Source: a virus
Lineage: Duplodnaviria; Caudoviricetes
IMG/VR virus record: IMGVR_UViG_3300032167_000004
Coordinates: 32,001-96,000 of that record
Strand: one strand, 5' to 3'
Length of the DNA stretch: 64,000 nt
Shown: one piece after another, positions 3,501 through 30,617 of the stretch
Layout: each line of letters opens with the position of its first letter
How positions within the stretch are numbered: position 1 is the first letter of the stretch
Notes under the pieces: generated by a model
The model's database searches: none
What the model was told of the DNA's origin: nothing
What the model saw: only the letters and a program-made list of their open reading frames with translations
Program-made: the position numbers and the translations under genes

Positions 3501-6500
3501 TCAGTTTTACCATCAGTACCGATCATTAACTCAGCATTACCTTTAAGATATTCCTGAGTTTTAATATATTCAGCATATTCAGTATCAAAACTCTGTTGAG
3601 CTTTTAATAACGTACTAGCTTTATCTGCATCAGCACCACTAAGTAGTGTGTATAATAAGGTTGCTAACATTTTAACAATATCAGGACCACCTAATGCTAC
3701 AGATATATCAGATCCTAACTGAATAGCCCATCCCCAGCCAAGATTTAATATACCTTTAAGTATAGAAGATGCAGCTCTCATAGTGGGGTTTACATCTTTT
3801 TGTGAGACATTGAACAGATTTGCAGTTTCAGTTGCAGTGAAACCACTTACAACACCATATCCACCTAAAACTAAATCTAATGTATGTCCTGAAGTAATAA
3901 CTGCTGCAGCTTTACCAAAACCTTTAGCTATATCATCTACCCAATTAAGAAGTTTAGATGGAGTTTTTACTATCGTTTTAAATGCTTTACCGATAGTATT
4001 CACAACAGTATTACTTGCAATTTTTGGGAATTTCTTCTTTAAAGCATTAGCAATTGCTTCCACAGCTTCATCTAAGAAATTAGCAAATCGTTTAATAATA
4101 CTTAAATTATCATCATTTGCTAAATATTTAGCTTTATAGTCGGTAGCATCATTACCTTTACCTGTTAAAGTTTTTATAACACCTTTAACTGACCTGTCCT
4201 CAAAATTACCAGCTTTACCTGTAATTAAACTACCAACAGCTTTTGTTGTACCTATTATAGACTTAGTAGAATTAATAGCAGTTTTACCAGCATTTATAGC
4301 ACTGGCACCAATACGTATACCACCAACAGTAGCAGCTTCAACAGCATCACTATTTACTTGAATATCACTAGTGGCATCAGTTCTATCACCATTAGTATCT
4401 TGAAGACCTAATATTTCTTTGGCTTTATTTACTATTATAGAACCTGTGCTTTCTCCTTCTTTAGGTTCATAATCTGCACCATGTTCATTATTGGAAGTAC
4501 CACCACCAAATAATGATGCAAATAAATCTTTAACAGATTGAGGAAGTTTCTTAATAAAGTTCATTAATAGAGGAATTAACAATAATAAACCACCAGTAAT
4601 TAAACCTTTTTTACTAAAAATAGAAGACCATACAGAACTGTGTTCTTTTCTGTCTTCATTACCAATCTGTAATAAATTCCTCATTTTATCTAATATACTT
4701 AATTGGTTCTTTTTATCTTCTTCCTCTTTACGCTGTTTTTTATCTTCAGCTTCAGTTTCACCAGTAGTATGGTAATCTAATACAGTACGTTTAAATTCAC
4801 CATTCTTAGTTCCACCATAAGGAATTAAAGTATTATTTTCATCTGATGAAGCAGTATTATTAGAAGTACCGTGTAACATATCACTCATAGAAGGTTGATC
4901 GTCTTCACGTTGTTCTTTATCTTCAGCTTCGCTTTCACCAGTAGTATTATATTTATTGAATTTATTTTTAAACCATTTACCTACAGAACGTGTCCAACTT
5001 TTTCCTTTTAATCTTTCACGTTCAGCTTTTCTTTTTTCTTTTTTAGATTGCTTCTTATTAGGATCATTATTATCAGAACCTTCAGGATCATTTGTAGTTC
5101 CATCAGGATTAATATTTACAGTAGCAGATTCATTATTAGATTTATCACTATCTGTAGAAGTATTATTATTGTTAGTTTTTTCAGGATCGTCAACTTTTAC
5201 ACCTCCACCTTTACCTCTTAAAATATCGAGAATATCATGGAGGAAATCACTAATATTGAAAATGGTTTTATTAACTGCTTTAGTTTCTTTAAATTGGTCT
5301 TTATCCTTGGCAGACATATTTTTATAATCTCTACCATACTTACGTTTCAGATCCTTATCGATTAATTTATCAACATCAATATCAGAATCAGAACCATCAG
5401 TATTATAACCAAAAGCTTTCGCTCTTTCTCTACGACCATCTAAATCATCACGTAATTTTTTAATTCTTTCTTGGTGTTCTTTACGCTTAGCTTCTCTTTC
5501 AGCTTTACGTTGTTCTCTAGCTGCAACTCTATCATCCTGATAAGCAGCACCATCATTACTATGCTTTGCGGCAGATCTTAAAGAACTAAAAGGATTAGCT
5601 AAACTGACTAAATCACCAACAGACTGTAAAAATCCACGATTTTTACCATCTTCACCCATAATATTATTCAGTCTATCAGTATCACGAATACCGTCTGCTT
5701 TATCAGATAAACCTTTAAAGCCTTTAGTTATTAAACCGATACCTTTAAAAGGTAAAGTTACAGCACCAAGTATACCTTTACCAAGTAATTTTATTCCTGA
5801 CCAGATTCCACCAAATAATTTTTTAATTTTATCTTTAGCAAAATCTGTAATATCCATAATAGAACCTCTGAAAGGTTCAATAACTTTATCATTTATAGTC
5901 TGTACAAATTTAGAAGATTTGATATTATCAATAATTTGCTCTCTAACTTTCTCAATACCTTCACGCATATGTTTAGGCATGATGATTTTATCAGCAATAA
6001 AATGAATTAACTTAACTGGAGAAGACAAGACAAATCCAGTAAATTTAGTAATGGTATTAAATGCAGCTTTACCAACATCTCCTACTAAACTAACAACTTT
6101 ATTAAATCCACTCTTAACTCCATCGGCAATATCTTCAAATAAATCTGTAATATGTAATTTATCTAAAACATCTTTTGCAAAACCGACAATTCTATCCTTT
6201 AATCTTTTGATTTCTTCTTTTAAAGGTTCCACAGAATCAATAAAAGGTTCTGCAATATGTTCAGCAAACCAATCCTGTACATTATAAGACCATTCCATAA
6301 CCTGAATCTTAGCAGGTTCTAAAATATTTAATGTAACAGCATTCATCATTTTAGTCAGAATACTCTGTTCTTTTCGATTACCATCCTTATCGAATGATCC
6401 GAAAATAGTATCTGACCATTTACTTGCAGCCATAGTAATACCTGCAGCTGCACCTAATAATGCACCTGATAAAGGACCAAATGCAATACTACCTAATATA

Positions 6501-9500
6501 CCAAAAGAACTTAAAGTACCACCTAAAATAGCACCTAAACCAGCACCAGCAGCACCAAATCCTAATTTCTTTTTAATACTATCATTATTTAATTTACCAG
6601 TAACTTTATTTACTAATCCATCAGTGTGAGTACCGTCACCATTATCTTTACCAAAAATCATATTTTGGAAAGCTTCAGATCTAGTAAGTAAAGATGTACC
6701 TAATCCAAATAAAGCACCAGTAAGAGGACCACCTAAAATGAAAGAAGGTAAAATACCAATACCGGTAATTCCCTTTAACATTCCTAAAGCGGCACCACCA
6801 ATCATGGCACCTTTATGTTTCTTGAAGAATTCCTGTGTAGATTTACTAATAAATCCACCGAGTCTTTCTCCAGTTTTTTCATCAGTCTTACCGAATAACC
6901 AATCTTTAAATTTATCAGACTGAGATAAGAATCCTGTAGCAGTACCGATAACAACACCAGACATAGGTCCTAAAAATAAAGAACCTAAAATACCGAATCC
7001 ACCAGCACCAGCTAATAATCCAATACCACCACCAACAATACCACCAGCTATTGCTTTAGGTGATTTTTCTTTTATTTCTCCAATTAAAGTATCTACAGTT
7101 TTATTAGAAACGACAGCATTCTTTTCTTTATCAAAATGCTGACCAAATAATAAATCAGTAAATCCTTGTAAACCTTCTTTAAAGTATTTACCTACATCAG
7201 ATAATAATCCCTTAGCATCTTCTTTGGTCTTTTCAGTATCAGAACCAAATAACCATTCTTTGAGATTTAATTTAAAATCATCAAAGAAATTACCTACTTC
7301 ACCGAAAACACCAGCGACACGTCTACCAGCTTTAACATTCTTATCCCATTTACCATTTTTATTACGTCTTTCAAGTTGTCTAATAATACTAGGATCAGTA
7401 ATAACTTCATCAGTCTTATTATCAATATAATAACCAGTAGCTTCATTATATCTAAAGTCAGATAATTTAGTTCCTCTAAAATAAGTAGTAGTTTTATTAT
7501 ACATATCCGAGAATCTACCACCAGAACGAGTGCCATCTTCTCCAACTTTACCAAATAATTTATCACGTGTAGTCTTAGCACCTTGGATAATCTTTTTATA
7601 CATTTCAGATTGCTTAAATTTGGTAATAATACCATCCTTACCAATGAAAGCTTCTTTAATGGGATTATAGATTTTTTCAACTAAGAAAGAATTAAATTTA
7701 TTAAAAATACCGCCAATGGAATTGCCTTCTACATCTTTTTCACCAAATAACCAAATTTTAAAGTTATTTGTCATAGCTGATAATAAACCTTTTTTAGTAT
7801 TATTCTCATATCCAACAGAATTTGTACCAAAAATAAGTTTATACATAGATTCATCTACAGCTGTAAATGCATTTTTAAGACTTGTTTTCCATCCACCAAC
7901 AGTATCTTCAACAACCTGTTGTTTTTCTTCATTAGTACCAAAAATATATTTAATTAACTTACTAAGATGACTAGGTTTTTTCTGATCTGTAGTAAGATTA
8001 CCTTCACGTTTATTTACATAGTTACGGATGATTTCAACTTGCTCTTCAGTTTCACCTGTAATATTATGGACATCTTTAAAGTTCTTTATACCTTGTTCTT
8101 CTCGTTTAGTTATTTCTTCAGGTGTTAAATTTGTAATAGTTCTTGGATTATAACCATCATATTTAGAAATAGTAGCATTATTTTCATTTTCATATTTTTC
8201 TAAACCAGCTAATCTTCCTTCAATAGGATCTACAAACCATACACCAATACCTTGTATTAATGCTTTATAAATATCACGTAAATAGTTAAGGCTATTTTTA
8301 CCAAATTCATCAGTAGGAGTAAAAATAGATCCAACCATTTTTGATTCATTAGATCCTTGATTAGGATATATTTTTGTAGCTTTAAGTAATGGATTATTAC
8401 TTAAATAATCAGCATCATTATCATATAACCCATTAACTTGAGCCATACCGACCATATTACCAGTTTTTTCATAATTCTCTAATAACTTAGTAACATTTCG
8501 TCTGGCATTAATATGTCCTGCACCAGCTAAATTTTCTATTTGAGAACGGTCTAATGATAAAATTAAAGAACGTATGACATTTAATTCATTAGGTGAAACT
8601 TTATCACCTAAAATTTCTTCCAAATCATCATTAGTACCTATTTTATGAGGATTAAAAGATTTTTTCCGTTTAGATAATGCTACTAATAAATCATCAATGT
8701 GTTCTTTTACTTTATCTTCTTCATCAGTTTCTAATCCATATGCCTTAACTCTACTTTTTAATTCATCAGCAGCGTCAAATGATGATACAGCAGCACGTTT
8801 AACTTGCTTATTATATTCATTCTTAAGTTGTGATTTGGATATAAATTTACCCTGGTCACTATCAAAAAGTAATTCATCTTTACCAGTTAAAGCTGATAAA
8901 ATCTTACTCAAATATCCTGGAATTACTTCTACAATAGATTTTCTAGTAATTCCATCAAAAGGAACTACTCCCTTTTCATACATTGCAGGATTTATTTCAG
9001 TTTTACCAACATTTTTAATACCTAAAACACTACCAATGAATCCTTTAAAGGCAGACATTAAATCATCACTAGCTTCATCTGCCCATGACCCCATCTTATT
9101 TAATAACGCAGGTATGAATGCTTTAAAAGATTCATCAAAACCTTTAAATGTTTTTGTTAAGAAATCAGGAACCATTTTGGTTAATATCATTTGAGGAATA
9201 AATGTTAAAGGAGATTGTGCCAATGCTTTTATACCATCACTTTCAAGCATAGACATAATAGATCCTAATAACATATCTTCATCAATTGCATTTCTAAACT
9301 GTCGTTTAACAACATTTTTATATCCTGAAAGATTTAAAGCACCATTATAGGTAGTGATTTCCTCTAACGGATGAACATTTTCAGGTTCACTAGGTCTTTC
9401 AACTGCACCACTAATTATTTTAAGAGTATTAGATATATCTGCCATATATTTAATACTTTCTTCATAATATTTTAAAGATGCACCAATATATCCACCAACA

Positions 9501-16994: not shown

Positions 16995-17675
16995 ATGAAA
17001 TTTAATAAAGATATTATTGTAATTGATGGAGCTGATGGTGTAGGAAAAACTACACAAATTGGTTTACTAAAAGAAAAATATAAAGAGTTTAAATTTATGA
17101 AATTTCCTAATTATAATAGTACAACAGGATTTTTCATAACAAAATATCTTAATGGTGAATTTGAAAATATGTTTAAAGGATTAGAACCTTTAGATAGAAT
17201 TAATAAAATTAGTATGTTATATACTATGGATCGGAATATATGGTTCTCTAAATATTATGAGCCGTATATTCCATTAATTTGTGATAGATATACAACTAGT
17301 AATATTCTACATATGTCTACATTGATTATTCATAATGGTGGTACAATGGAAGATGTATATCATTATATTAATAATATAGAAGATTTAGAATATTCTAAAT
17401 TAAATATTCCAGAACCGAATTTAGTTATATATTTAGATGCTCCTACTGAACAATTAAAAAAGAATTTAAATGGCACCCAGCAAGTACTGGATATACATGA
17501 AGATGAAAGCATTTTCAAAAATATTGAGTCTGTAAAGACTGAAATTATTGAATACTGTGGATGGAAAGTTGTAAATTGTGTTGATGAATCTGGTATGAGG
17601 AGCATAGAAAATATTCATAATGATATAGTAAAAATTATTGATAATTACTTTGAAACTAAAAAAATAATGAAATAA
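16995..17675 (+). CDS. tmk: Thymidylate (dNMP) kinase
   Basis: P-loop DGADGVGKTT, KFP, CDRY, PNLVIYLDAP. Confidence 0.92.
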   Translation: MKFNKDIIVIDGADGVGKTTQIGLLKEKYKEFKFMKFPNYNSTTGFFITKYLNGEFENMFKGLEPLDRINKISMLYTMDRNIWFSKYYEPYIPLICDRYTTSNILHMSTLIIHNGGTMEDVYHYINNIEDLEYSKLNIPEPNLVIYLDAPTEQLKKNLNGTQQVLDIHEDESIFKNIESVKTEIIEYCGWKVVNCVDESGMRSIENIHNDIVKIIDNYFETKKIMK

Positions 17676-17723
17676 AAAAATAATACCGAATAGTCTTAAT
17701 TGACTATTCGGTATTATTTTTTT
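17674..17723. terminator. Bidirectional terminator between tmk and the Tas/TIGR transcript
   Basis: A-run + TAATACCGAATAGTC-ttaatt-GACTATTCGGTATTA + T-run. Confidence 0.85.
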
Positions 17724-17755
17724 ATTTCTAAGTATAATAATCTAGTTCACTATAA

Positions 17756-18505
17756 TGATTCATTATTTACTCAACTGGAATTTGATTCATTCTTGGATAT
17801 TGATACTAAAAAAGAGGTGGTATGATTTATTAATATATTTTCAATGTCGTGGTACTATAAAATCATCTGATTCATTGCCATAATATGTTACTATCAGATT
17901 TCTGATTCATTAGAAGAAAATGATATTTTTTGCTTGTCTGGTTTATCATTTTCATAGATTGATACTATATTGATTGATGATTCATTAATATCGCATGATA
18001 CTTTTTGTGGAACCTGATTCATTAATTATTCCTTAGATACTAACTTTAGCAATGATTTTATTAATTTTTTATAGGGATTGATACAATTATGGTGGATGAT
18101 TCATTATGTATCCGTGATACTATGAGGTTTCCTGATTCATTAGGAGGAGACGATACTATAATCATCCTCTTGATTCATTTCAGTTCTCAGATACTAAAAA
18201 TTGACATGATTCATTACACATACTATGATACTAAATCCACAAACTGATTCATTGTTGATTCGTGTTACTATAAACTGCAATGATTCGATTAATTCCACTG
18301 ATACTATACGATGATATGACTCACTATTATTGTATACTACTTTAAGGAAATTTGATTCAGTTATATCTCCCTGATACAATTAGGTGAACTGATTCATTTG
18401 AGCATTTAAGGTACTATCTTTCTTAATGATTCATTAATTTTAATTGATACTATCCCTCCATATGATTCATTTCGGACAATTGATACTATTTTCGTTGATG
18501 ATTAA
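17756..18505 (-). repeat. TIGR-like dual-repeat guide-RNA array 1 (~20 units of ~36 nt)
   Basis: On minus: alternating (A)ATGAATCA and (AT)AGTATCA repeats, each followed by a unique ~9-nt spacer; starts ~25 nt after the Nop-domain gene stop and ends at a terminator. Confidence 0.88.
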
Positions 18506-18530
18506 ATATTATTAAAAAAGTATTTCCGGA

Positions 18531-19484
18531 TTATTCATCCGGAAATACAATTTCTCTATTAGGTGCATGGATAATATGTACATGACCAAGATGATCCTGC
18601 ACAAAAGGATTAGGAGCTTTTGCTCCTCTATCATATTCATACCAAATTTCAAACAAATGACTCAGGAAAATTTTAACTGCAAATCTTTTAGCCATTGCAT
18701 TAATATGAGCAGGAGGAAGCTTACCATTACTATACCACTTATAAGCTTCAGTATCCTTACCATATTTCTTTAACTTCAATTCTTCTGCAGCTTTTTCTGC
18801 AAATCCACCTGCTTCATTTTTAGCTTCATACCAAGACTTCTTTTCTCTATAAAGATGACCATAAATATCATCTTTATTATTAGAAGTTTTTACAAAGGAT
18901 TCACCAAGTTTCCAACACAAAACTCTAAATTTAGGATTCCATGTAATTTTTTGTCCAGCAGTTCTAACTTTACGAGAACCATCCCAGCCAGCATAATTCC
19001 AAATGGAACCTGCAGTATTACATTTTTTAATATCAATATATGCAAGCATACCTGCAGCAATGACAGGACCAACACCCTTGATACTAAGCATCCATTTTCC
19101 GATAGGATGAGATTTTGCATAATAACCAAGGAACTTAGAAATTGTTGTTTCAGTTTCTTTAAACTGGTTTTCAATATATTGAAGATAAACAGGCTGTTCA
19201 CAATCGATAGTATCAACAGATTTTCCATTCTGAATAGCTTCCTCTTTCATCTTCTTCAATTCTTCTCTAGCAACTGCACTTTTACGATTACCAGTTCTAA
19301 TACGAATATCTTGCATATCGTAATATACTTCAATTGCATTACGAATTTCATCATCTTTAATAGGATGCTTTTTAATATCCTTAATAGTCATATTAGCCAC
19401 ATCAAATAAAGGCTCAACCTTATTCTCAATGGTCTTATCCATATCATTCTTGTTGGGGGTCTTCTTAGCTGCACACATAAACAA
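18531..19484 (-). CDS. tasA: TasA-like Nop-domain (IS110/Nop5-related) RNA-guided DNA-binding protein without a recognisable nuclease domain
   Basis: Coiled coil YYDMQDIRIRTGNR; SIKGVGPVIAAGMLAYI...SIWNYAG...WNPKFR...GESF...AKRFAVKIFLSHL; no DEDD RuvC or HNH seen; adjacent dual-repeat array. Confidence 0.82.
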   Translation of the reverse strand: MFMCAAKKTPNKNDMDKTIENKVEPLFDVANMTIKDIKKHPIKDDEIRNAIEVYYDMQDIRIRTGNRKSAVAREELKKMKEEAIQNGKSVDTIDCEQPVYLQYIENQFKETETTISKFLGYYAKSHPIGKWMLSIKGVGPVIAAGMLAYIDIKKCNTAGSIWNYAGWDGSRKVRTAGQKITWNPKFRVLCWKLGESFVKTSNNKDDIYGHLYREKKSWYEAKNEAGGFAEKAAEELKLKKYGKDTEAYKWYSNGKLPPAHINAMAKRFAVKIFLSHLFEIWYEYDRGAKAPNPFVQDHLGHVHIIHAPNREIVFPDE

Positions 19485-19540
19485 AAATTTCCTTTCTTTT
19501 TTGGTTGTTACAATTTTATATATTTGCTTGGATTCATTTA

Positions 19541-19554
19541 AATAATATATATTT
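19541..19554 (-). promoter_or_regulatory. Early promoter motif driving the Tas-TIGR operon
   Basis: AAATATATATTATT on minus, the same motif found before other early gene blocks. Confidence 0.65.
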
Positions 19555-19621
19555 ATTATTTATTTTGATTTTATTACTAAGTAAACTTTATAATAATATG
19601 AATTTATGAAAGGAGAATAAT

Positions 19622-20149
19622 TTGATGGCAATTACATCTTTATTAGATATTACACCAACTTTAAAGGACTCAGTTAGTAGCATAACTGATAAATTTAATG
19701 ATGAAGTTATTCCTAAAATAGAAAAAATTTCAGGCACTGTCAATGAAATAAATTGGACATTTAATGACCAAATCAAACCTACTGTAAATGATAATAAAAA
19801 TAAAATTAATGAAATTGATACTTTAATAAAAGAAGAAATTTTACCAATTACTACAGATTTTATAGAATTATACGAGGTTATTATTATTCGTATCTTATTA
19901 TCTAAATTTGTTATGTTCTTAAATCATATCTTTAAATGGTACTCCTATCTAATTATAGAAATTGATGATGATTCAAATGAAATAACTCATATTATATCAT
20001 TATCTGAAACTAATACTAAGAATATATATAATACGAGATATAAAATATTTAAAAATAAATTAAAAGAATTAAAAAAAGAATATAATATTAGTTATAATGA
20101 CTTAGTTAATATAACTATACTATATACTAAATCTATACTTAGAAAATAA
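19622..20149 (+). CDS. Hypothetical protein with N-terminal helical repeats
   Basis: 175 aa; AAAGGAG SD; repeated I.P motif about every 22 aa. Confidence 0.7.
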   Translation: MMAITSLLDITPTLKDSVSSITDKFNDEVIPKIEKISGTVNEINWTFNDQIKPTVNDNKNKINEIDTLIKEEILPITTDFIELYEVIIIRILLSKFVMFLNHIFKWYSYLIIEIDDDSNEITHIISLSETNTKNIYNTRYKIFKNKLKELKKEYNISYNDLVNITILYTKSILRK

Positions 20150-20168
20150 AAAAAGGAGACAAACAATC

Positions 20169-21512
20169 ATGAATACTACTTATTATATTAAAAATTTTCA
20201 ATTTGATAATATGGAAAAGATTAATGATTATCTTAGACGTTATTCTGACAAATATTTTAATTTTAATGAGTTACAGAATTTATTAATGGCTGAAAATGTT
20301 TCATTTGTGTTATCTGGTATTAATAGACTCCAGAGTACATTAATTTGTGAAGCAGGATTCTCTTATGTACAGCAATCTCAGAGATATGTCCCTGTTAATA
20401 ATAAATTTATTAAATTCTTAGATAATACTCCTGAAGAATTAATTATTGAAGGTTCTACATTGGTAAATAAATCCATTAATTTATATAATAAAATGACTGA
20501 ATTAGTTAATCCTAATAAAAAGGGTCGTCCTGCTAAAGAAGATTTTGTTCATGGTATTATGTATGAAGATGGACGATCTGTACTGCCTTTAGCCATGTCT
20601 ACTCATCTTGTAGTTAGCATGAGTGCAGATAAGTTAATTGATCTATTTATTTTATTTACTAAATATCCTTTAATTTTTAAATCTCTTCAGGAAGATATGG
20701 AAAAATTGATTCCTTTTAAACTGTATCATAATTTAACTGTAGCTGCATATTATAATACTCAGACTGATAATCGTATTAATGACAATTATTTTAAAGAAAA
20801 TATTAAGGATCTTTCTCTGATTAATCCTATTTATATGCTTAATTCTATGAATAATGTAGCAGTAGCTGCATTAGCAAGTCAGAATGAAGCTTCTCCTGAT
20901 GAAGTTTATAATTCTTGGGGTCCTGATACTGAAGCTAATGATTTAAAGATCTGTAGAAATGTGTTAGGATATGGTCATCATGGTATCAATGAACATTCCA
21001 GAACTAAATTTGCGATGACTTGTTCTTTAGCAGCATATCATCAAGTTATTAGACATAGACTTCAGAATATTAGAAGAGAAGCTTTAAAAGATTTAGTCTG
21101 TGGTAAGGATAGAGAATATGTTATCCCTAAGTCCATTATTTATAATGATCAATTCTTAACTGAATTCCATGCTTTAATTGATGAGTATGAAGATTTTTAT
21201 GCTAAGTATAATAAAAAATATGATATTCAGTTCTTAATGCAATTTATGTTAAATGCCGCAGCTATTAGATTTGTTGTATCCTCTAATATTAGAAATGATA
21301 ATAATATTTTTAAGGATAGACTTTGTTATACTGCACAGGAAGAAATTCGTGAACTGTACTTAAAGAAATTTAAGATTCTACATAATACATATCCTCATTT
21401 AGTTAAAAAATATGCTATTCCTCCTTGTGTTACAACTGGTAAATGTAAGGAAGGTAAGTTAACTTGTGGACATATGGCTGAAGTTAAGGAGCAATATAAA
21501 GATTATATTTAA
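20169..21512 (+). CDS. thyX: FAD-dependent thymidylate synthase, tandem two-domain form
   Basis: SYVQQSQRY and EDGRSVLP in the N-half; GHHGINEH, HQVIRHR and RLC..AQEEIR in the C-half. Confidence 0.8.
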   Translation: MNTTYYIKNFQFDNMEKINDYLRRYSDKYFNFNELQNLLMAENVSFVLSGINRLQSTLICEAGFSYVQQSQRYVPVNNKFIKFLDNTPEELIIEGSTLVNKSINLYNKMTELVNPNKKGRPAKEDFVHGIMYEDGRSVLPLAMSTHLVVSMSADKLIDLFILFTKYPLIFKSLQEDMEKLIPFKLYHNLTVAAYYNTQTDNRINDNYFKENIKDLSLINPIYMLNSMNNVAVAALASQNEASPDEVYNSWGPDTEANDLKICRNVLGYGHHGINEHSRTKFAMTCSLAAYHQVIRHRLQNIRREALKDLVCGKDREYVIPKSIIYNDQFLTEFHALIDEYEDFYAKYNKKYDIQFLMQFMLNAAAIRFVVSSNIRNDNNIFKDRLCYTAQEEIRELYLKKFKILHNTYPHLVKKYAIPPCVTTGKCKEGKLTCGHMAEVKEQYKDYI

Positions 21513-21573
21513 ATTTTCATTATAATAAAAAAATAAATGGGTATGAGGATTTTCTCCTCATACCCATAATTAT

Positions 21574-21804
21574 TTATCCATTAAGAATTTCTTCAGTAAG
21601 CTTATGTGCGTACTTATCAATATTCTCAAAAGAGTCTAATTGAAATACATTACAGCTAATTTTATTAACTAGTTCTCCTGTATTCATATCATACTCCATA
21701 ATTCGAATTTGTCCTGAGAGTTTATCGATACGAAGATTTCTTTGTAATTTGAGTTCATTATCTTCATAGACTAATGAAATACCATCAGTTTTAAGTTCAA
21801 TCAT
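21574..21804 (-). CDS. Hypothetical protein
   Basis: Start revised to ATG at 21804 behind AGGAGGAG. Confidence 0.65.
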   Translation of the reverse strand: MIELKTDGISLVYEDNELKLQRNLRIDKLSGQIRIMEYDMNTGELVNKISCNVFQLDSFENIDKYAHKLTEEILNG

Positions 21805-22492
21805 GTTTCTTCTCCTCCTTAAATTCATCCTGAGGAATAGTGATTTCAGAATCATCATCACCATTCATCAAACGATATTTTGCCTGCTCAAAGCTTTCAA
21901 AACTTTCTCCAGCAGGAGTCATATGGTCAACAATCCACTGTTGAACAATACTTGCTGTAGTACGTTTCATATCATTTTCAATTTTTGCTCTCTTTTTATT
22001 ATCTTTAGGTACTCCATATTTAATATATACAACTTCCCATTCATCACGATCAATTGTTTTAGCAATAAACTGAGTACCTTTAAAGAATTTGTCTTTATCT
22101 TCAGGAAGATTAAAGATATAATATACATATCTATCTTTCCAAAGTTCTTTGAGAACTTCCATGTCTTTAACAATCTCATTATCTTTATTGTTAAAGATAT
22201 CAAAAAAGCTTTTAATACCAACTAATACCGGAATCACTCTATGTATGATTTTTCTCATTAGTAAAAGACTATCTTTAACTAATTTCATTTCAAGTTGGAT
22301 AATAATAAAATCTGTCTCTACATCTCTGATAACTTTAATACTATGGGATTTCCGTTTCCGGTTTTTGAACCTGTGTTTAAAATATTTATAATCTTCAGAT
22401 AAAATACCAACTGTCTTGAGTTCTTTGATTATTGCGTTTAATAATGCAACAATCCATTCCATGAATTCTTTTTGGATTTTGAGTGTTAACAT
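21797..22492 (-). CDS. Hypothetical protein
   Basis: 231 aa; AAAGGA SD; early promoter motif at 22547-22560. Confidence 0.75.
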   Translation of the reverse strand: MLTLKIQKEFMEWIVALLNAIIKELKTVGILSEDYKYFKHRFKNRKRKSHSIKVIRDVETDFIIIQLEMKLVKDSLLLMRKIIHRVIPVLVGIKSFFDIFNNKDNEIVKDMEVLKELWKDRYVYYIFNLPEDKDKFFKGTQFIAKTIDRDEWEVVYIKYGVPKDNKKRAKIENDMKRTTASIVQQWIVDHMTPAGESFESFEQAKYRLMNGDDDSEITIPQDEFKEEKKHD

Positions 22493-22546
22493 ATGCGTAT
22501 TCCTTTCTAGTTTGTATATTGAGAGTTATTCTTTCTCTCTTATCTT

Positions 22547-22630
22547 AATAATATATATTTGAGTATATTAATTTTACGAATTTTCTATGTTCCTACAAAT
22601 GGTTAAACTTCTTTATAAATATATATTATT
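22547..22630. promoter_or_regulatory. Divergent pair of early promoter motifs
   Basis: AAATATATATTATT on minus (22547-22560) and plus (22617-22630). Confidence 0.65.
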
Positions 22631-22649
22631 AATATGAGGTGATTATGTA

Positions 22650-22892
22650 ATGGATAAACTTGATAAAGAGTTAGCTATAGAAAAATTCACTAAAACTATG
22701 AGAGGATCTTTAAATGATATTGAAAAATTAATATCATTCTTAAATATTGAAGATACTAAGCATAAGAAACTATTAGAAGAATCAATTAAAATGATTGATA
22801 AAAAACTTAATAAAGTTGAAAAATGTGATAGTATTGAAGAAACTAAAAAGTATATAAAAGTTAAAAAGGTGATTAAAAAATATGGAGAATAA
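22650..22892 (+). CDS. Hypothetical protein
   Basis: 80 aa; GAGGTGA SD. Confidence 0.75.
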   Translation: MDKLDKELAIEKFTKTMRGSLNDIEKLISFLNIEDTKHKKLLEESIKMIDKKLNKVEKCDSIEETKKYIKVKKVIKKYGE

Positions 22893-23358
22893 GGAACCTA
22901 AACATGTATATATTTTTGGTAACAAATCATTAGGATTTCATGGCCATACTTATTATAAAGATGAAGCTAAGAAAATTTTAAAAGCTAGAAAAGGTCTTAA
23001 AGTAAAGAAAATTAAAAATGATAAGTATTGTAAAGCTGTTTTATCAGTTAATACTGAATTTATAAATTATTATGAAGGAACTTATGTGACTTGTGATGAA
23101 GAAGAATATTTTTTAGAATCTTTTCAACAATTTCAACAAGATGTATTAAAGCAAATTGATACATTAATAGATAATATTAAATTCTTTAAATTAACAGAAG
23201 AAGAAAAATACCTTATGAAATATCTTATAGATTATTTACTTGATTATCAAGATTATATGTTGCGTGGTCAATATGAAGATGGGGGAGAAGCTTATGAATC
23301 TTTATTTAATAATAGTGAAGCAATGAGATGGTTCGTTGCTAATGTATTAGATCCATAA
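22882..23358 (+). CDS. Hypothetical protein (paralog of 23358-23870)
   Basis: 158 aa; overlaps upstream stop; shared N-terminal YI...G.T..K....L..RKG pattern. Confidence 0.75.
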   Translation: MENKEPKHVYIFGNKSLGFHGHTYYKDEAKKILKARKGLKVKKIKNDKYCKAVLSVNTEFINYYEGTYVTCDEEEYFLESFQQFQQDVLKQIDTLIDNIKFFKLTEEEKYLMKYLIDYLLDYQDYMLRGQYEDGGEAYESLFNNSEAMRWFVANVLDP

Positions 23359-23870
23359 TGAAATATTATATTATATTTAAAGATAACCACTTCATAGGAT
23401 ACACCACAGATAAAAATCTATTAGATAATTTTCTTAATAATCGTAAAGGAAAATATAAGGTAAAGAAACTTAATGAGGATGAAATACCTGATGAAATAAG
23501 AAATTCATTTGAATTTAGTAATTATGAATTAGTAGAATATTGTGATTATTATACTACTAATGATGCTGTAATATTTAACTATGAATATATTGATATGGAA
23601 GAATATATGAGTAGAGATTGTTTAGCATTACAACATCTACTAAAGTTTGTATTACAAAATTTAAATCTTATGAATTTTAATGATGAAGATAGAAAAATTA
23701 TTCAATACAGTTTTTATAAATTATATGATGATCTGAATGCTATAACAGATAGTAATGAGGTTATATATGATGAGATAATTAATATTAATAAATATCTGTA
23801 TGATAGATATTTACCAAATAGAAAAGATACTAAGGATATAATCGAAAATTCCACTTTACAAGATTGGTAA
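23358..23870 (+). CDS. Hypothetical protein (paralog of 22882-23358)
   Basis: 170 aa; TAATG coupling. Confidence 0.75.
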   Translation: MKYYIIFKDNHFIGYTTDKNLLDNFLNNRKGKYKVKKLNEDEIPDEIRNSFEFSNYELVEYCDYYTTNDAVIFNYEYIDMEEYMSRDCLALQHLLKFVLQNLNLMNFNDEDRKIIQYSFYKLYDDLNAITDSNEVIYDEIININKYLYDRYLPNRKDTKDIIENSTLQDW

Positions 23871-23905
23871 CATAAATGTAATAAAGAATTGTGAGGTGGT
23901 AATCG

Positions 23906-24565
23906 TTGAGAGTACCAAAGGTTGAGAATTATAGTAATGAGAAGTTATTTGAAGTATTAAATATTTCAAATGTACCTAAAGTACAAATGGAATATATTGT
24001 CATGTCAGATAAAGATAAGATTAGATTGATAAAACATATTGAGTCTATTGTTAGAAAATCTATTGAGTATAAGGATTATATTAAATTCTTAAAAGAACAC
24101 ATCGACATGACAGAATGTACATTCTTTGAAAAAGTAACTAATAAGAATCCTAATTCTGGAATTTCCATTGAGATTCATCATGAACCTATGGATTTATTCA
24201 CTATTGTACAAACTGTAGTTGACAAATGGATTGATTTGGATATGGATGTTAATCCTTTACTTATTGCTGAAGAAGTGATGGAATTACACTATAAAAATCA
24301 AGTTGGTTTAGTACCTTTATCTGCTACAGTACATCAGTTATATCATGATGGAAAAATATTTATTCCATTACAGAATGTGTATGGTAATTATTTATCTTTC
24401 ATCGAAGAATATGGTACTTATATAAGTGATAGTACACAGAATATTCTTCAGACTAAATTAAGAATGTCTAAAGAAATTATTAATCCTGACACATCTATAC
24501 TTGAAAAGAAATATGTATATTTGAATGTGGATGGATTCAATTTACCTCAAGTGATTGAGCAATAA
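23906..24565 (+). CDS. His-motif (HNH-like) conserved protein, paralog of 31286-31939
   Basis: C...IEIHHEP...LSATVHQLYH; late promoter at 23869-23880; GAGGTGG SD. Confidence 0.65.
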   Translation: MRVPKVENYSNEKLFEVLNISNVPKVQMEYIVMSDKDKIRLIKHIESIVRKSIEYKDYIKFLKEHIDMTECTFFEKVTNKNPNSGISIEIHHEPMDLFTIVQTVVDKWIDLDMDVNPLLIAEEVMELHYKNQVGLVPLSATVHQLYHDGKIFIPLQNVYGNYLSFIEEYGTYISDSTQNILQTKLRMSKEIINPDTSILEKKYVYLNVDGFNLPQVIEQ

Positions 24566-24635
24566 AAAAATAAATACAAGATATAAGTTTTAAAACTTAT
24601 ATCTTGTATTTTTAATGTAAAAAAGGAGAATTAAT

Positions 24636-25082
24636 GTGGGAAATCATAGATATTATAGAATATGTGTAAATGGTAAAAAAGACCATTCTACAGGAGGTTA
24701 TACAGCTCAATATATACGAGAAAATATATTAAATGATAATTTTGATCCTATTAAGTATATAACTCATAATAATTATGATATTAATAATATTTTTAATATT
24801 TCATTTGTTAGTATAAAAACTTCTAATGATAGAACTACAAAAAATATTGAGGATATTATCATCTTTACTTATGAGAATGGTATAAAGTTGAATAATATTA
24901 AATTCTGTATGATTCATTATTCTACTCGATTAGCTGATGAATTTTGTAATAATGTTATTAATTTGAAATCAATACTTTCCAATAATATTATATCATTCGA
25001 TGACACACATATAACACAACCAATAAAAACAGGATTACATGGTGAGTATGTGTATAAGTTTAAAGGATGGAAAACTAAATGA
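24636..25082 (+). CDS. Hypothetical protein
   Basis: 148 aa; AAGGAG SD; GTG start. Confidence 0.7.
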   Translation: MGNHRYYRICVNGKKDHSTGGYTAQYIRENILNDNFDPIKYITHNNYDINNIFNISFVSIKTSNDRTTKNIEDIIIFTYENGIKLNNIKFCMIHYSTRLADEFCNNVINLKSILSNNIISFDDTHITQPIKTGLHGEYVYKFKGWKTK

Positions 25083-25672
25083 TAAATATAAACTTATTTA
25101 CAGATGGTGGAAGTTTTAAGAAAGGAAAAGTGGCAGTCTCTACAGGACGGATGTATGTGGATAGAAAGAAGGTATTAACTTATGAAAAAGTAATATTATG
25201 GAAATCGAGTACATTTGCTGAACTATTTGCTATTAATAAAATACTTTCACGAGCATATGGTTATTGTGTGCAGAAAAATATATTAGATGATGATTTTCAT
25301 ATCAGTATCTATACAGATTCATTAACATCTATAAGTATTATATTATCAGATAAGAACTGTGTAGATGATACATTCAGTAATACAATTATTAATGAGATTA
25401 AAGATACTATTAGTAAATTTAATAATAAAGTATCTTTTTATCATATTAAATCTCATGTATCAGGTCATAAATTAAGAGAAGCTCATAATGAATTCTGTAA
25501 AAGAAATAATGTAGAAATCTCATTCGATGACTTTTTATTCATTTATCAACAAAATAAAAAGTGTGATAATATAGTTTCTAAAGAATATAAAAAGTATAAT
25601 AAACAATTAAAAATAAAAGAATCATTGATTAAATCGAAAAATATCGATTATGAAAATCAAATACTTTTATAA
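25079..25672 (+). CDS. rnhA: Ribonuclease H-like protein
   Basis: FTDGG, AELFAI, YTDS, HIKSH and N..CD motifs. Confidence 0.8.
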   Translation: MININLFTDGGSFKKGKVAVSTGRMYVDRKKVLTYEKVILWKSSTFAELFAINKILSRAYGYCVQKNILDDDFHISIYTDSLTSISIILSDKNCVDDTFSNTIINEIKDTISKFNNKVSFYHIKSHVSGHKLREAHNEFCKRNNVEISFDDFLFIYQQNKKCDNIVSKEYKKYNKQLKIKESLIKSKNIDYENQILL

Positions 25673-25724
25673 TTATATATTATATCAGTATAGTCAAGAA
25701 ACTATAATATTAAAATTTAAGTAG

Positions 25725-26777
25725 GTGACATCATTGATTAATATTAACGTGACTCCGGCTAGAAATAATTTTGTTAAACGAGATTCTCGTTTGATGGAAG
25801 TATATGTTTTAGACTATGGTGATAATTATCATCGAGGTGATAATGAACCAAGTACGGAGTTTGAAAGGGAAGTTCGTAACATTAAAGCAAGATATAGAGA
25901 TATTAATAAATATTATTATGCTATGTCATTATATAAAGAATATATGGAATATCTTGCTGAAAAACATGGAGGTATGGATCTTTTTAAGCTTAAGAAAAAG
26001 AGAGGTCTTATCGAAGACTATGTTCCTCCGAAGCCTAGAATTAAAAATACTAAAGAATTAAAGTTCTTAAAGAAGCATAATATTATTGTAAGTAATACCG
26101 GTAGATATTTAATTGATGATGATAAATTTGATGAATATCTTGAAGAGAATTATTATAGTCCTAATTCTAAAGGAGAAGATACTATAGTAAAACAATCTAA
26201 AGATAAAATTGTTGAAGATATCTACTATGATAGTTCTTCTAATACTAAGATGAAAAATATTAAGTCTCAAAGTTTTAAAGACGACTTTGATTATCTTGAT
26301 AACTATTTTAGAAATAAAAACTTTAATTCTAAGAAAGATAAAAAGAAAAAGAAGAAGAAAAATAAAGATAATAATAAGGTTCTAATTAGTGAACTTATGA
26401 GAGCTGATTATGACCAATATTATTATGGTAAGGATGAATATATGGAGGATAGTGATACTGGATATGCTGTATATAATAATATGATGCTATCTACAGGCAC
26501 TATGAAAGAACTTGATATTTATCATAAGTTGAATGATCTTGGTTGGAATTCTTATAAACTTATGAAGAAGAACTCTTATAGTAAACGTGTTGCCAGTGTA
26601 TTTAAACCTCCTAAGAAGAAAAAGAAAAATAAGAAAAAATCCGCATATAATAAAGATTATGATGGATTGTTAATTGATATTATGACTGATAGTGGATTCG
26701 ATACAGACGATATGGATTCATTCGCAGAATTTCAGAAAGAGATGTTAAATATGACATCTGCAAATGTTTTTAAATAA
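25725..26777 (+). CDS. Hypothetical protein with poly-Lys tracts
   Basis: 350 aa; behind an early-like motif at 25671-25684. Confidence 0.75.
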   Translation: MTSLININVTPARNNFVKRDSRLMEVYVLDYGDNYHRGDNEPSTEFEREVRNIKARYRDINKYYYAMSLYKEYMEYLAEKHGGMDLFKLKKKRGLIEDYVPPKPRIKNTKELKFLKKHNIIVSNTGRYLIDDDKFDEYLEENYYSPNSKGEDTIVKQSKDKIVEDIYYDSSSNTKMKNIKSQSFKDDFDYLDNYFRNKNFNSKKDKKKKKKKNKDNNKVLISELMRADYDQYYYGKDEYMEDSDTGYAVYNNMMLSTGTMKELDIYHKLNDLGWNSYKLMKKNSYSKRVASVFKPPKKKKKNKKKSAYNKDYDGLLIDIMTDSGFDTDDMDSFAEFQKEMLNMTSANVFK

Positions 26778-26799
26778 AATTAGAAAGTGTGATATTAAC

Positions 26800-28284
26800 A
26801 TGAGTGAAGTTAGAAGTAGAATCTTACAATTTATGAATGAAGATCTATTAGTTAGATTAAACTCTATTGCATTAGATGTATTGATTCCAGATAATAATAC
26901 AAAAATGAATTTGTATATTGCAGCTCTTGAAGAACATAATATCCCATATCAGGAATTAGGTCCAGGCACAAACCGTGGAGCCTTTCTTATTGATGGTTAT
27001 GTATTTAAGATTGCATTTGATAAAGCTGGTATGAATGATAATTTTTCTGAATTATCATTATCTCAACAGTTACAACCATTTGTAACTAAATGTTATGAAT
27101 GTAGTGGTAATGGATTGATTGCTGTACAAGAATATGTGACGGTAATATCCAAAGAAGAATTTAACAATAGTAAAGAGGAAGTGCGTCAAATTCTTTCTCA
27201 TCTTGCTGAAAGTTATCTTCTTGGTGATGTTGGAAGTGTAACTAAAAACTTTATGAATTGGGGATATCGAGAAGATGGATCTCTTGTTATTCTTGATTAT
27301 GCTTATATTTATAGAGTGATTGGTGATGAATTACTTTGTGGTGGTATTAATCCAGATGATACATTTTGTCAGTATCCTCTTGATTATGATATCAATTTCC
27401 ATAAGTTAATTTGCCCTAAATGTCGAAAAGAATATACTTTCCATGAAATTAGAAGACGAATCAGTCAAGAGTATGAAGAAAAAGAAAGAGAAATGATTAA
27501 AAATATTGCATATAAGGTTACACAACCTTCACAAAAAATTAATAAGAATATTGACACAACTATTGTGAAAGAAAATAATGAAGGAGACAATATTATGAGT
27601 AAACATAAATATGAATATTTAGAAGAAAATAATATTAATGAAGAAGCCCTCTATGAGGATGCTATTGAATTTATGAGAAAAGGTACTCCTGTAGTTGAGG
27701 AGAAAGATACTGAATCTCATGATGTTATCGTTGATGATAATGAAGCTGTTGATGAAGCAGCTGATGCTATTGTAAATGCTTCTGATGAAATTGTTATTAA
27801 TGAAGTTGAATCTGAAGAAGAATCGGATGAGAATATTATTAATATCATTAATGATGTATTTGAAGAAGCAATTAATGAATTTGAAAATGAAGAGCTAATT
27901 GATGCTGATAATGAAACTATTTCTGAAACAGTTGAAGTAGAAGAAGCATACGAAGATGCTATTGAAGAGTTATCTTCTGAATATCATTCAAATTCTATAA
28001 TGGATGTAGTTGAACCTGAAAATGGTAATATGACTACTGCTAATATTCTTGAAGGTCTCGACGTTACGTCAATGACTACTGTAACTAAGATTGAAACTGC
28101 TTCTAATGATACTGTAACCATTGAATCTAATGATACTGTAATTCTTACTACTCCTGATAATGTAGATAAGATGCGTGAAATGCTTGTTGCTGATCTTAAT
28201 GAGAAGTATGAAGAATATGATGATATGTTTGGTCAGCATAATGGTTTCCATAAGATTCCTAAGAAGAAGAGAGATTTTAATTAA
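26800..28284 (+). CDS. Protein-kinase-like domain + Zn finger + long acidic tail
   Basis: GPGTNR...FKIA, QEY, GDV...NWG, ILDYAY; CPKC; D/E-rich C-half. Confidence 0.6.
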   Translation: MSEVRSRILQFMNEDLLVRLNSIALDVLIPDNNTKMNLYIAALEEHNIPYQELGPGTNRGAFLIDGYVFKIAFDKAGMNDNFSELSLSQQLQPFVTKCYECSGNGLIAVQEYVTVISKEEFNNSKEEVRQILSHLAESYLLGDVGSVTKNFMNWGYREDGSLVILDYAYIYRVIGDELLCGGINPDDTFCQYPLDYDINFHKLICPKCRKEYTFHEIRRRISQEYEEKEREMIKNIAYKVTQPSQKINKNIDTTIVKENNEGDNIMSKHKYEYLEENNINEEALYEDAIEFMRKGTPVVEEKDTESHDVIVDDNEAVDEAADAIVNASDEIVINEVESEEESDENIINIINDVFEEAINEFENEELIDADNETISETVEVEEAYEDAIEELSSEYHSNSIMDVVEPENGNMTTANILEGLDVTSMTTVTKIETASNDTVTIESNDTVILTTPDNVDKMREMLVADLNEKYEEYDDMFGQHNGFHKIPKKKRDFN

Positions 28285-28320
28285 TATAATATTAAACTTA
28301 TTAAAGGAAGTGTTTTATTA

Positions 28321-28995
28321 ATGGCTTGTATTATTAGAATGAGATCTGATGAATTTCTCGATAAATTTATTAAGAAGCATGATTATAAGAAATTTAATTT
28401 TCTATTAATTTCTGAAGATATTAAGACTACGAATCAGTATAAAAATGTATATGCTATTCCATCTTTAATTCCCCCACCTAATATTATTTCTGATTTTATT
28501 CAGGTGGGATATTCCGAGAAATATATTAAAAATTATTTAGATTATATCCAGACTCCTAGAGTCGAAGCAATGATTACAGTTGCCGTTAAACTTGCAATTA
28601 TAGATAACGCCAATGTCGTCTTGATCTGCTCTAAAGCTGAAGATGAATTTAAATATATTGATATTATTTGTCAGTATATTGAAAATATCTATGGGGTTAA
28701 AACTTATAGTTATAAGAAATATAGAAAAGATCCTGAAGCATGTGAAACTATTAATGATAAGGTAAAAAAGAAAGTAGCTAAGGTTCTTGAAAAGAAAATT
28801 GGTGAAATCCAAGATATTGATCCTTATAAAATTCCTCATAAAAAAGAAATTCGTGCATTTGTTAAGCCTCTTGGTAAAAAACAAATGACTAAGATGCTTA
28901 GAGAACACGGCATTAAGCACAATCCTAAAGATTCTAAGAAAGATCTTAAGAAACTTGTTAGTTTAATGATTGCTGAAGGACGTATTAGAGTTTAA
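28321..28995 (+). CDS. Hypothetical protein with C-terminal HeH/SAP-like helix pair
   Basis: 224 aa; LREHGIKHNPKDSKKDLKKL. Confidence 0.7.
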   Translation: MACIIRMRSDEFLDKFIKKHDYKKFNFLLISEDIKTTNQYKNVYAIPSLIPPPNIISDFIQVGYSEKYIKNYLDYIQTPRVEAMITVAVKLAIIDNANVVLICSKAEDEFKYIDIICQYIENIYGVKTYSYKKYRKDPEACETINDKVKKKVAKVLEKKIGEIQDIDPYKIPHKKEIRAFVKPLGKKQMTKMLREHGIKHNPKDSKKDLKKLVSLMIAEGRIRV

Positions 28996-29054
28996 ATATA
29001 TAAGGTACTAGACTTATTTGCCTAGTACCTTATATTTATTAATCAAAAAGTATA

Positions 29055-29776
29055 ATAATATCAATGGAATCACATGAATCAAGGATGCAGATAAATAGTA
29101 TCATACGGGGATAATGAATCATTGACAAGGATCGCATCATTATATTTAAATGAATCATTGAAGATCATTGTGTCATTTTATTGAAATGAATCAGGGTGGA
29201 TTATAGTATCATTTGAGTCTAATGAATCATTTGTCATTATAAAGGTATCAGGATAGTTAAATGAATCGTAATTAGCAGATAGTATCCGATGAATACAATG
29301 AATCAGGGTGACTGAAATTTGTAACATTTGAGCCTAATGAATCATCTTGAATTTATAGAAACATTGAATGGGAATGAATCGACTATGAATAAAGTATCAA
29401 GGAACATGTGAATGAAACATGAACACATAATAGTATCATCAGGTTCTAATGAATCATTACATATAATAGTATCAATGATCTGAACATGAATCATATGACA
29501 ATAAAAAAGTATCAGAATAGATTAATGAATCATGTTATAAAAAAGTATCATATAGGTATCAATGAGCCAGAGTGACTGACAATATGTATCATTCAAGTCT
29601 AGTGAATCGTGTGGGTAAAAGTATCTTGATATGATCAATGAATCATACCATAACAAATAGTATCAATAAATGCTAATGAATCAGTTATTATCATAGTATC
29701 AGTTGTTATGAATAAATCAGGATGCAATAAATATCATCATACTTGAGAAATGAATCAGGTATTGTTATTGAATCAG
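29055..29776 (+). repeat. TIGR-like dual-repeat guide-RNA array 2 (~20 units), orphan (no adjacent tas gene)
   Basis: Same alternating ATGAATCA / AGTATCA repeats with ~9-nt spacers and ~36-39 nt period; bounded by a hairpin (28999-29036) and a terminator. Confidence 0.87.
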
Positions 29777-29787
29777 ATATTAAAATG

Positions 29788-29826
29788 AAATACAGATTAT
29801 CTATATAGATAATCTGTATTTTTTTA
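29788..29826 (+). terminator. Terminator after array 2
   Basis: AATACAGATTATCTATATAGATAATCTGTATT palindrome followed by a T-run. Confidence 0.85.
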
Positions 29827-29861
29827 AATATATATTATTACTTTAATTAGGAGGTGATAAT

Positions 29862-30617
29862 ATGTTATATGAAAAGCATAATTATCTTAATAAAGATATT
29901 GAATATTTAATCAATCAGGAAATTACAGAGTATGATATTAAAAGTGCTGGTTTTAATATTTGTAAAAAATACCATTTGCTAGATGATAAGAAAATAAATC
30001 ATTTAGAATCTTTAGATAAGAAACGTAGACAAATCACATTGGGCTTATATCAACAACATGATCAAGAATTTAAAGAAATTTTAAATTCCAAATTTGTGGA
30101 AGTAAGAAAAGAATTTTTTGAAGCAAATGATTTGAAAGATGAAGATGTATTATCAATAAAGAAAGACGCTATAATAACCCTTAGAAAATGTTATAATACA
30201 GAATTTGATAATATAATATTTTCTGATAAAAATAATTATTCATCTTATTTTTATATAAATAAATTTGAATTTTATATTAATCCCACAATTATACATGTTA
30301 AGGGTATATCTGATGATAAATTAGAATTACATAAAGACTATATGTTAGATTTTCTACATAAAATATTTAGGTTATTTGAAACTAATCCGAATAAGAAATA
30401 TATTATTGATAATATACGAGAATTTATTTCTTATTATAAAGATAAACGATTACATATAGGATATTATAGAGAATTAAATAAAGATTCTTTATATAAATTA
30501 AATAGATCATTTATACACGATTATATAGGATTGCAACATGTAAATTCATTAGAGAATATTGATATTTCTTATAATTATATGAAATACATTATTCCTATAA
30601 TTAATATTTTATTATAA
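29862..30617 (+). CDS. Family B DNA polymerase-like palm fragment
   Basis: EYDIKSA, SIKKDAI and HVKG motifs; early promoter motif at 29826-29839. Confidence 0.55.
   Translation: MLYEKHNYLNKDIEYLINQEITEYDIKSAGFNICKKYHLLDDKKINHLESLDKKRRQITLGLYQQHDQEFKEILNSKFVEVRKEFFEANDLKDEDVLSIKKDAIITLRKCYNTEFDNIIFSDKNNYSSYFYINKFEFYINPTIIHVKGISDDKLELHKDYMLDFLHKIFRLFETNPNKKYIIDNIREFISYYKDKRLHIGYYRELNKDSLYKLNRSFIHDYIGLQHVNSLENIDISYNYMKYIIPIINILL

Follow-up and report, generated by a model that had tools for sequence, protein, structure and literature searches.

Does the tasA locus of a large gut phage encode an RNA-guided DNA-binding system and, if so, how would it work and at which DNA would it be aimed? This question was raised by a 64,000-nucleotide stretch of phage DNA (hereafter the window; bases 32001-96000 of the 263,786-bp virus record IMGVR_UViG_3300032167_000004), whose minus strand carries a gene, here called tasA, followed by an array of two alternating short repeats. 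A first-pass annotation of the letters had taken the gene and the array for a TIGR-Tas system. The arrays of this family alternate two repeats of 8-12 nt (edge and loop) with 9-nt spacers; they usually have 5-15 units, carry a truncated edge at both ends followed by a terminator, and their transcripts are cut to tigRNAs of 36 nt, each extending from the middle of one edge to the middle of the next (Faure et al. 2025, PMC12045711). We are highly confident that the locus is a TIGR-Tas system of subtype TasA; it is a further member of a known family and brings no new mechanism.

The array next to tasA (array 1; 17756-18507, minus strand) consists of 20 units, each built as an edge repeat AATGAATCA, a spacer A of 9 nt, a loop repeat ATAGTATCA and a spacer B of 9 nt. 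It opens with a degenerate edge, ATTTAATCA, at 18507, 24 nt past the tasA stop codon, and its last edge, AATGAATCA, lies at 17764-17756; an intrinsic terminator on the same strand closes it (17675-17722, −31.6 kcal/mol, z −12). The about 20 units of about 36 nt, the start within about 25 nt of the stop codon and the closing terminator described in the first-pass annotation were thus all recovered, and the unit quoted there as an example is unit 11 (18141-18105). Exactly 36 nt were found in 10 of the 20 units, while the others range from 27 to 45 nt, with 1-9 bases gained or lost mostly at the 3′ ends of the spacers, and unit 20, the last one, is truncated. When up to 2 mismatches are allowed, the window contains 18 copies of the edge-N9-loop pattern, whereas chance would give 0.05.

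A genome-wide scan revealed one further array (array 2; 29037-29792), 10.5 kb from array 1 and on the opposite (plus) strand, with about 20 units that have identical edge and loop repeats and different spacers, and with no tas gene nearby; together, the two arrays hold about 40 units. Array 2 is also bounded by edge repeats and then a terminator (29788-29828, plus strand, z −5.8). In both arrays, all nine positions of the edge and of the loop are conserved in 75-100% of the repeats (most of them in 85-100%), and the flanking positions are variable. The alternating 9-nt repeats, the 9-nt spacers, the 36-nt period, the edge ends and the terminator were all found, as the proposed architecture had implied, and with them every sequence-level feature by which Faure et al. 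2025 recognise a TIGR array. Within array 2, units 5, 8 and 15 (29185-29229, 29297-29344 and 29561-29609) carry related spacer pairs (GGGTGGATT/TTTGAGTCT, GGGTGACTG../TTTGAGCCT and GAGTGACTG../TTCAAGTCT), which points either to units that were duplicated and then diverged or to several guides for variants of a single target.

The edge and the loop have A1, G4 and A6-U7-C8-A9 in common. Both were initially noted to end in TCA, and this UCA occupies the position of box C in each of them. The putative equivalents of box D are UG in the edge and AG in the loop, and both forms occur in TaTIGR and SpTIGR. The phage repeats differ from those of FpTasA and MbTasA in ending in UCA and not in CCA/CCN and in having UG in the edge and AG in the loop; compared with TaTIGR, the distance from box C to the following conserved G is 2 nt longer.

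The tasA gene extends on the minus strand from an ATG at 19478 to 18531 and encodes 315 amino acids, as identified by its open reading frame, homology and structural model; the 317 amino acids first reported hold for an alternative TTG start at 19484. The database cluster representative (P0001) is 315 residues long, as from the ATG. When the protein was compared with the sequences of the PDB using phmmer, it matched TaTasR (9mty, 331 aa; E 2.7e-16) and SpTasH (21kl; E 3.3e-11), and the alignments begin past the nuclease domains of these proteins, in TasR past the N-terminal RuvC. An AlphaFold2 model built from 28 homologues reached a predicted local distance difference test (pLDDT) of 88 and a predicted template modelling score of 0.81, with long helices at residues 42-84 and 97-122. 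The layout that emerges is a coiled coil (about 42-122), a Nop C-terminal domain and a flexible C-terminal loop (about 289-301). In a Foldseek search of the PDB, complexes of TasH or TasR took all of the first 11 places (E 4e-8 to 1e-4), and the IS621/ISCro4 recombinases came next; this check by AlphaFold and Foldseek substantiated the Nop/IS110 RNA-binding fold that had been read from the translation. There are at least 977 homologues of TasA, and 40 columns are invariant across 28 of them when aligned.

Neither the Pfam search nor inspection of the model disclosed a nuclease domain in TasA, with no RuvC and no HNH; the coiled coil starts at about residue 42, which leaves no room for one, and the approximately 40 residues ahead of it are of low complexity. 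By the definitions of Faure et al. 2025, the lack of a nuclease domain places the protein in subtype TasA, in agreement with the type first assigned to it. The coiled coil and the Nop domain are homologous to those of TaTasR (9mty) and SpTasH (9w03, 9w04 and 21kl), whose Foldseek E-values range from 4e-8 to 1e-6 and with which TasA also shares a conserved His in the C-terminal loop; in contrast to these proteins, it has no N-terminal RuvC (TasR) or HNH (TasH), and therefore no DNA cleavage is expected.

We considered whether the locus could instead be an IS110-like recombinase or mobile element, or a guide system for RNA modification of the box C/D type, and not a DNA binder. Several similarities point in this direction. 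The sole Pfam match of TasA is to Transposase_20, near the GVGP helix-hairpin, although at 18.6 bits it is below the cut-off of 21.3; the PHROGs label of the family is 'transposase'; IS621 appears as a second-tier fold match (Foldseek E about 2e-3), the Nop-like RNA-binding fold being common to both; and the repeats resemble box C/D motifs. However, the E-values of the Tas structures are better than those of the IS110 family by some 4 orders of magnitude, an N-terminal DEDD/RuvC is missing, the guides form an array of many units in place of a single bridge RNA, and the locus occupies a fixed syntenic position and is not mobile. The missing DEDD domain and the fixed synteny exclude an IS110-type recombinase. 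Archaeal and eukaryotic box C/D small ribonucleoproteins (Nop5/Nop56/58) likewise combine a Nop domain with a coiled-coil dimer and two guide segments flanked by box-like motifs, but neither fibrillarin (PF01269) nor L7Ae (PF01248) had a match in the complete 264-kb genome, which disfavours an RNA-modification system, and the phage has arrayed 36-nt units with no K-turn-forming full box C/D. Moreover, TasR does not act on RNA substrates (PMC12045711). Taken together, we regard this alternative as highly improbable. A scan of 17500-30100 with Rfam gave only a chance match to a v-snoRNA (E 0.53, far under the gathering score).

We then turned to the signals that may govern expression of the locus. 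The early-promoter motif AAATATATATTAT (19554-19542, minus strand, read directly) precedes tasA, with the predicted +1 G at 19535 after a gap of 6 nt, as had been seen at the outset, and it is a letter-for-letter match to the early consensus of phage AR9, AAATATATATTAT-(6N)-G+1 (PMC5312081). The core of this motif, TATATATTAT, has 66 copies in the genome (43 on one strand and 23 on the other) versus about 9 expected per strand, or about 18 in total. The motif match by itself suggests that tasA would be produced right after infection. Both arrays are co-oriented with the flanking transcription signals, and each ends in a terminator.

The tasA stop codon sits inside a terminator-like hairpin (18548-18520, minus strand; a 12-bp stem followed by T6, −20.6 kcal/mol, z −5.7), which separates the gene from array 1. 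A hairpin that overlaps the tasA stop codon or lies just after it is present in three related phages, namely here, in L002 (about 7015-7035) and in L003 (about 6470-6492), and it may serve as an attenuator and so determine how much tasA mRNA is made relative to array transcript. Between tasA and array 1, we found neither the early motif nor an AACA-N6-TA motif. On the plus strand, a further hairpin (28998-29035, −18.8 kcal/mol, z −6.2) lies directly upstream of array 2, after the stop codon of a 224-aa open reading frame (28321-28995); upstream of this array, the AACA-N6-TA motif had just two matches, both within genes, and the early motif had an imperfect likeness at 25674; we claim no promoter there.

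To see how widely this design occurs, we used the exact edge-N9-loop-N9-edge pattern, which retrieved 19 further loci on about a dozen IMG/VR contigs of 30-320 kb, many of them of 100-320 kb, several with 2-3 arrays. Across this clade, 280 of the 428 units (65%) are exactly 36 nt long. The pattern was absent from a set of 185,579 prokaryote species, each represented by one genome; given its occurrence on large viral contigs, this kind of repeat seems to be confined to one clade of large phages. Some of these contigs carry much longer arrays or several of them, with about 50-65 units per locus compared with the typical 5-15; examples are L013, L023 (about 45 units) and, with several arrays that extend over more than 2-4 kb, L024 and L025.

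In the relatives whose TasA proteins are 81% and 64% identical to this one, tasA also lies between thyX and a dTMP kinase gene, and arrays of about 24 and about 9 units follow it. A TasA of 52% identity (L004:6001-6885, L005:5009-5893; on a 210-kb phage contig) has the same position adjoining thyX, and no array comes after the gene because the next gene starts 59 nt downstream; the arrays of this phage may sit elsewhere in its genome. Some close relatives of TasA are larger, with about 130-180 extra residues: P0027/P0030 (446-485 aa), P0019 (485 aa), in which the extra part is an N-terminal BspA-type leucine-rich repeat region, and P0031 (477 aa, from a 247-kb contig), with a C-terminal extension that has no Pfam match.

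The guides proved much less stable than the repeats. Counterparts with at most 3 mismatches in 18 were found for 3-4 of the 39 guide pairs parsed here when these were compared with 389 pairs of other contigs, and three common pairs that are consecutive in the relative with 81% identity are scattered in array 2. These data show that the spacer content turns over fast between related phages. In one case, array 2 unit 13 (29485-29532) and unit 15 of L003 (7010-7060) contain the same pair with spacers A and B exchanged and 1 mismatch in 18 (TATGACAAT / GAATAGATT here, GAATAGATC / TATGACAAT in L003), whereas no swapped match with at most 1 mismatch arose when the spacers were re-paired at random five times. 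Since the swapped pair addresses the same duplex, this single case fits selection on a target, or acquisition from it, in either orientation. A strain-variant contig from another gut sample (run X9, tas about 94% identical) was also compared with array 1 (17767-18510); it shows two insertions, one of about 72 nt and one of about 114 nt, and the tas-proximal units are replaced, with the common units being 97-99% identical. This comparison, which is contig-level evidence at a depth of about 5, suggests gains and losses of whole units between strains.

The geometry in which the two spacers would be read can be derived from published data. TasR leaves 8-nt 3′ overhangs, and swapping spacers A and B keeps its activity (PMC12045711). 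By our own derivation, only spacer A followed by the reverse complement of spacer B yields 3′ overhangs, since the other arrangement always yields 5′ overhangs; this is the target rule that had been stated from the outset, and it is the only geometry that matches the published overhangs. In the 264-kb genome, every guide pair was looked for in this true geometry and in three wrong-geometry controls, and no excess of matches emerged; the best true hit had 1 mismatch and was a low-complexity variant equalled by the controls. When the 248 distinct canonical pairs of all arrays were searched against 531 kb of own and related loci with the arrays masked, the true geometry gave 0 exact and 1 one-mismatch hits, and the controls gave 0-3 one-mismatch hits. 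In viral contigs, the exact target of array 1 unit 11 had 0 matches, that of the swapped pair had 8 in 5 unrelated contexts, and that of a pair conserved in three phages had 8 in 6 unrelated contexts. These exact matches are about what chance gives for 17-18-mers, and for this reason no target is claimed. The 18-mer search advised in the first-pass annotation thus returned nothing beyond controls or chance in own, related-phage or viral-contig DNA, and the limitation that 18-nt guides impose on target searches was likewise stated by the authors of the TIGR-Tas family. Targets of palindromic type, in which spacer A resembles spacer B, were not enriched.

These searches bear on a second alternative, in which TIGR-TasA would regulate the phage's own genes by self-targeting and thereby provide temporal control. 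The idea is attractive since homologues of TasA are reversible repressors and an early promoter suits a regulator. Nevertheless, no guide did better than the wrong-geometry controls in the 264-kb genome, and the guides are almost wholly different between syntenic loci, which is unexpected for regulators of conserved genes; we therefore consider self-regulation unlikely. Because the guides do not match the phage genome and turn over quickly between related phages, they are most likely aimed at DNA of the host or of competing mobile elements, and not at the phage itself.

How the system would work can be outlined by analogy with its homologues FpTasA, MbTasA, TaTasR and SpTasH. The arrays would be transcribed, array 1 by a polymerase that reads through the hairpin around the tasA stop codon, and the transcripts would be cut inside the edge repeat into tigRNAs of about 36 nt with the structure AAUCA-spacerA-AUAGUAUCA-spacerB-AAUG. 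One tigRNA would load one coiled-coil TasA dimer, and the G and AUCA common to the edge and the loop, as equivalents of box D and box C, would dock one set per protomer. Of the two strands of the DNA, one would pair with spacer A and the other, over the adjoining 9 nt, with spacer B, with no protospacer adjacent motif (PAM) involved, and the nuclease-free complex would bend and occupy its site, so that transcription or replication would be blocked. TasA homologues bind 36-nt RNAs (PMC12045711), and MbTasA binds its target DNA and represses transcription in a reversible, guide-dependent manner. Because the homologous proteins bind RNA and DNA and repress in this way, we consider it very probable that the phage system would operate according to this full model, from tigRNA processing and a dimeric ribonucleoprotein to 9+9 pairing with both strands and a roadblock in place of cleavage.

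Several observations weigh against this model. A strong terminator-like hairpin separates array 1 from tasA, and neither array was found to be preceded by a recognised promoter. A natural target was not found in the phage's own genome, in related phage DNA or in the three exact scans of viral contigs. Canonical 9+9 spacers are present in only 15-16 of the 40 units, so that part of the units may not work. Box D has an ambiguous register, with the conserved G lying 11 nt, and not 9, after box C; either repeat positions 1-2 act as constant ends of the spacers or box D is displaced. Finally, SpTasH cuts its own precursor by means of Y289 and H296 on its flexible C-terminal loop (PMC13421893), and the Tyr of this Y/H processing dyad is F292 in the phage protein, a position occupied by F in 18 of 28 relatives and by Y in 10. 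H296 of SpTasH aligns with H299 of TasA, and H299 and H301 are both invariant in the 28 relatives; the pLDDT of this C-terminal loop is low, as a flexible loop would give. Given the invariant H299 and the Phe at the Tyr position, self-processing of the array RNA by TasA seems plausible but is not assured, and a His/His arrangement or a host RNase could take the place of the Y/H dyad.

Some of these observations would also be expected if the locus were decaying or only partly functional, with relic arrays and few or no working guides. Here, only about 40% of the units have the canonical 36 nt, several repeats carry 2-3 mismatches and the last unit of array 1 is truncated; the hairpin ahead of array 1 and the Phe in the dyad would agree with decay as well. 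On the other hand, the tasA frame is intact and its homologues retain their 40 invariant columns, the repeats are conserved beside variable spacers, the family tolerates spacers of up to 12 nt (PMC12045711), and the same design, with most of its units at 36 nt, is found in many large phage contigs. Since the repeats are conserved and the design recurs across phages, we reject decay of the whole system, which we judge very unlikely, while it is possible for single units of odd length.

Returning to an active TIGR-TasA system, a more specific proposal would be that TasA, loaded in trans from the two arrays with about 40 guides, acts as an immediate-early silencer of host or rival DNA, and that an adaptation route common to the clade takes up the units from duplex targets, whichever way round these are read. 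The acquisition part draws support from the A/B-exchanged pair in two phages and from the differences of whole units between near-identical strains and between phages. We put forward this combined proposal only tentatively, as it is rather doubtful that both of its parts hold.

The closest described systems are FpTasA (from Flavonifractor plautii) and MbTasA (Faure et al. 2025, PMC12045711; Xu et al. 2026, preprint, 10.64898/2026.09.09.750476). They share with the phage locus a solo coiled-coil protein with a Nop domain and no nuclease domain, and an adjoining dual-repeat array of 36-nt units that is bounded by edges and followed by a terminator. In contrast to them, about 60% of the phage units deviate from 36 nt, a second array is found 10.5 kb away, the carrier is a jumbo phage of 264 kb in which an early promoter of AR9 type is present, and a Phe occupies the Tyr position of the dyad. 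The likely role, guided interference without cutting, and the rapid turnover of the guides are reminiscent of the nuclease-free CRISPR systems of mobile elements (type IV and type V-M); however, the phage system has unrelated proteins, a split 9+9-nt pairing to both strands, no PAM and no known adaptation genes.

Concerning the carrier, the record is a single virus record of 28% G+C that CheckV rates as complete. The genome encodes a multisubunit RNA polymerase beta-like protein and a single tas gene; ParB_N, although ParB is known at some TasA loci, had no match in it. The phage genome has no close relative among GenBank phages, and a blastn search of the locus against the same phages gave no match. 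The first-pass annotation had referred to an AR9-like jumbo phage. The promoter consensus is indeed shared with AR9, and the genome has the RNA polymerase beta-like gene, but the kinship is distant, so that this is a 264-kb gut jumbo phage that is AR9-like only distantly. The public runs in which the locus occurs all consist of DNA reads, with animal faeces or bovine gut as their source. On either side of tasA and array 1 lie a thymidylate-kinase-like gene (16995-17675) and a long ThyX-like gene of 447 aa (20169-21512) with the Thy1 domain in its C-terminal half only, and this neighbourhood of thyX and dTMP kinase is kept in related phages.

The TIGR-Tas family was described in 2025, and its catalogues list about 20,000 tas loci and 6,685 arrays. 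We found no paper discussing TIGR-Tas in jumbo phages, and in the accessible part of the Faure et al. 2025 supplement we found neither the names of the related contigs nor the repeat motifs; the phage locus may already stand in the published tas catalogues. What is new here is the second array, the presence of the repeats in about a dozen large viral contigs, the syntenic tasA, the turnover of the guides together with the A/B swap, and the Phe in the dyad.

The natural targets, the acquisition of spacers and the role of the nuclease-free TasA are open questions of the TIGR-Tas field, and this locus provides the context of a complete phage genome, with an early promoter, two arrays and one tasA. 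The 315-aa effector and its about 40 natural guides are a candidate for building repressor tools. The related large phages, which carry the identical repeat pair and mostly different guides, form a comparative set for studying what TasA is aimed at and how units are gained, lost and re-acquired.

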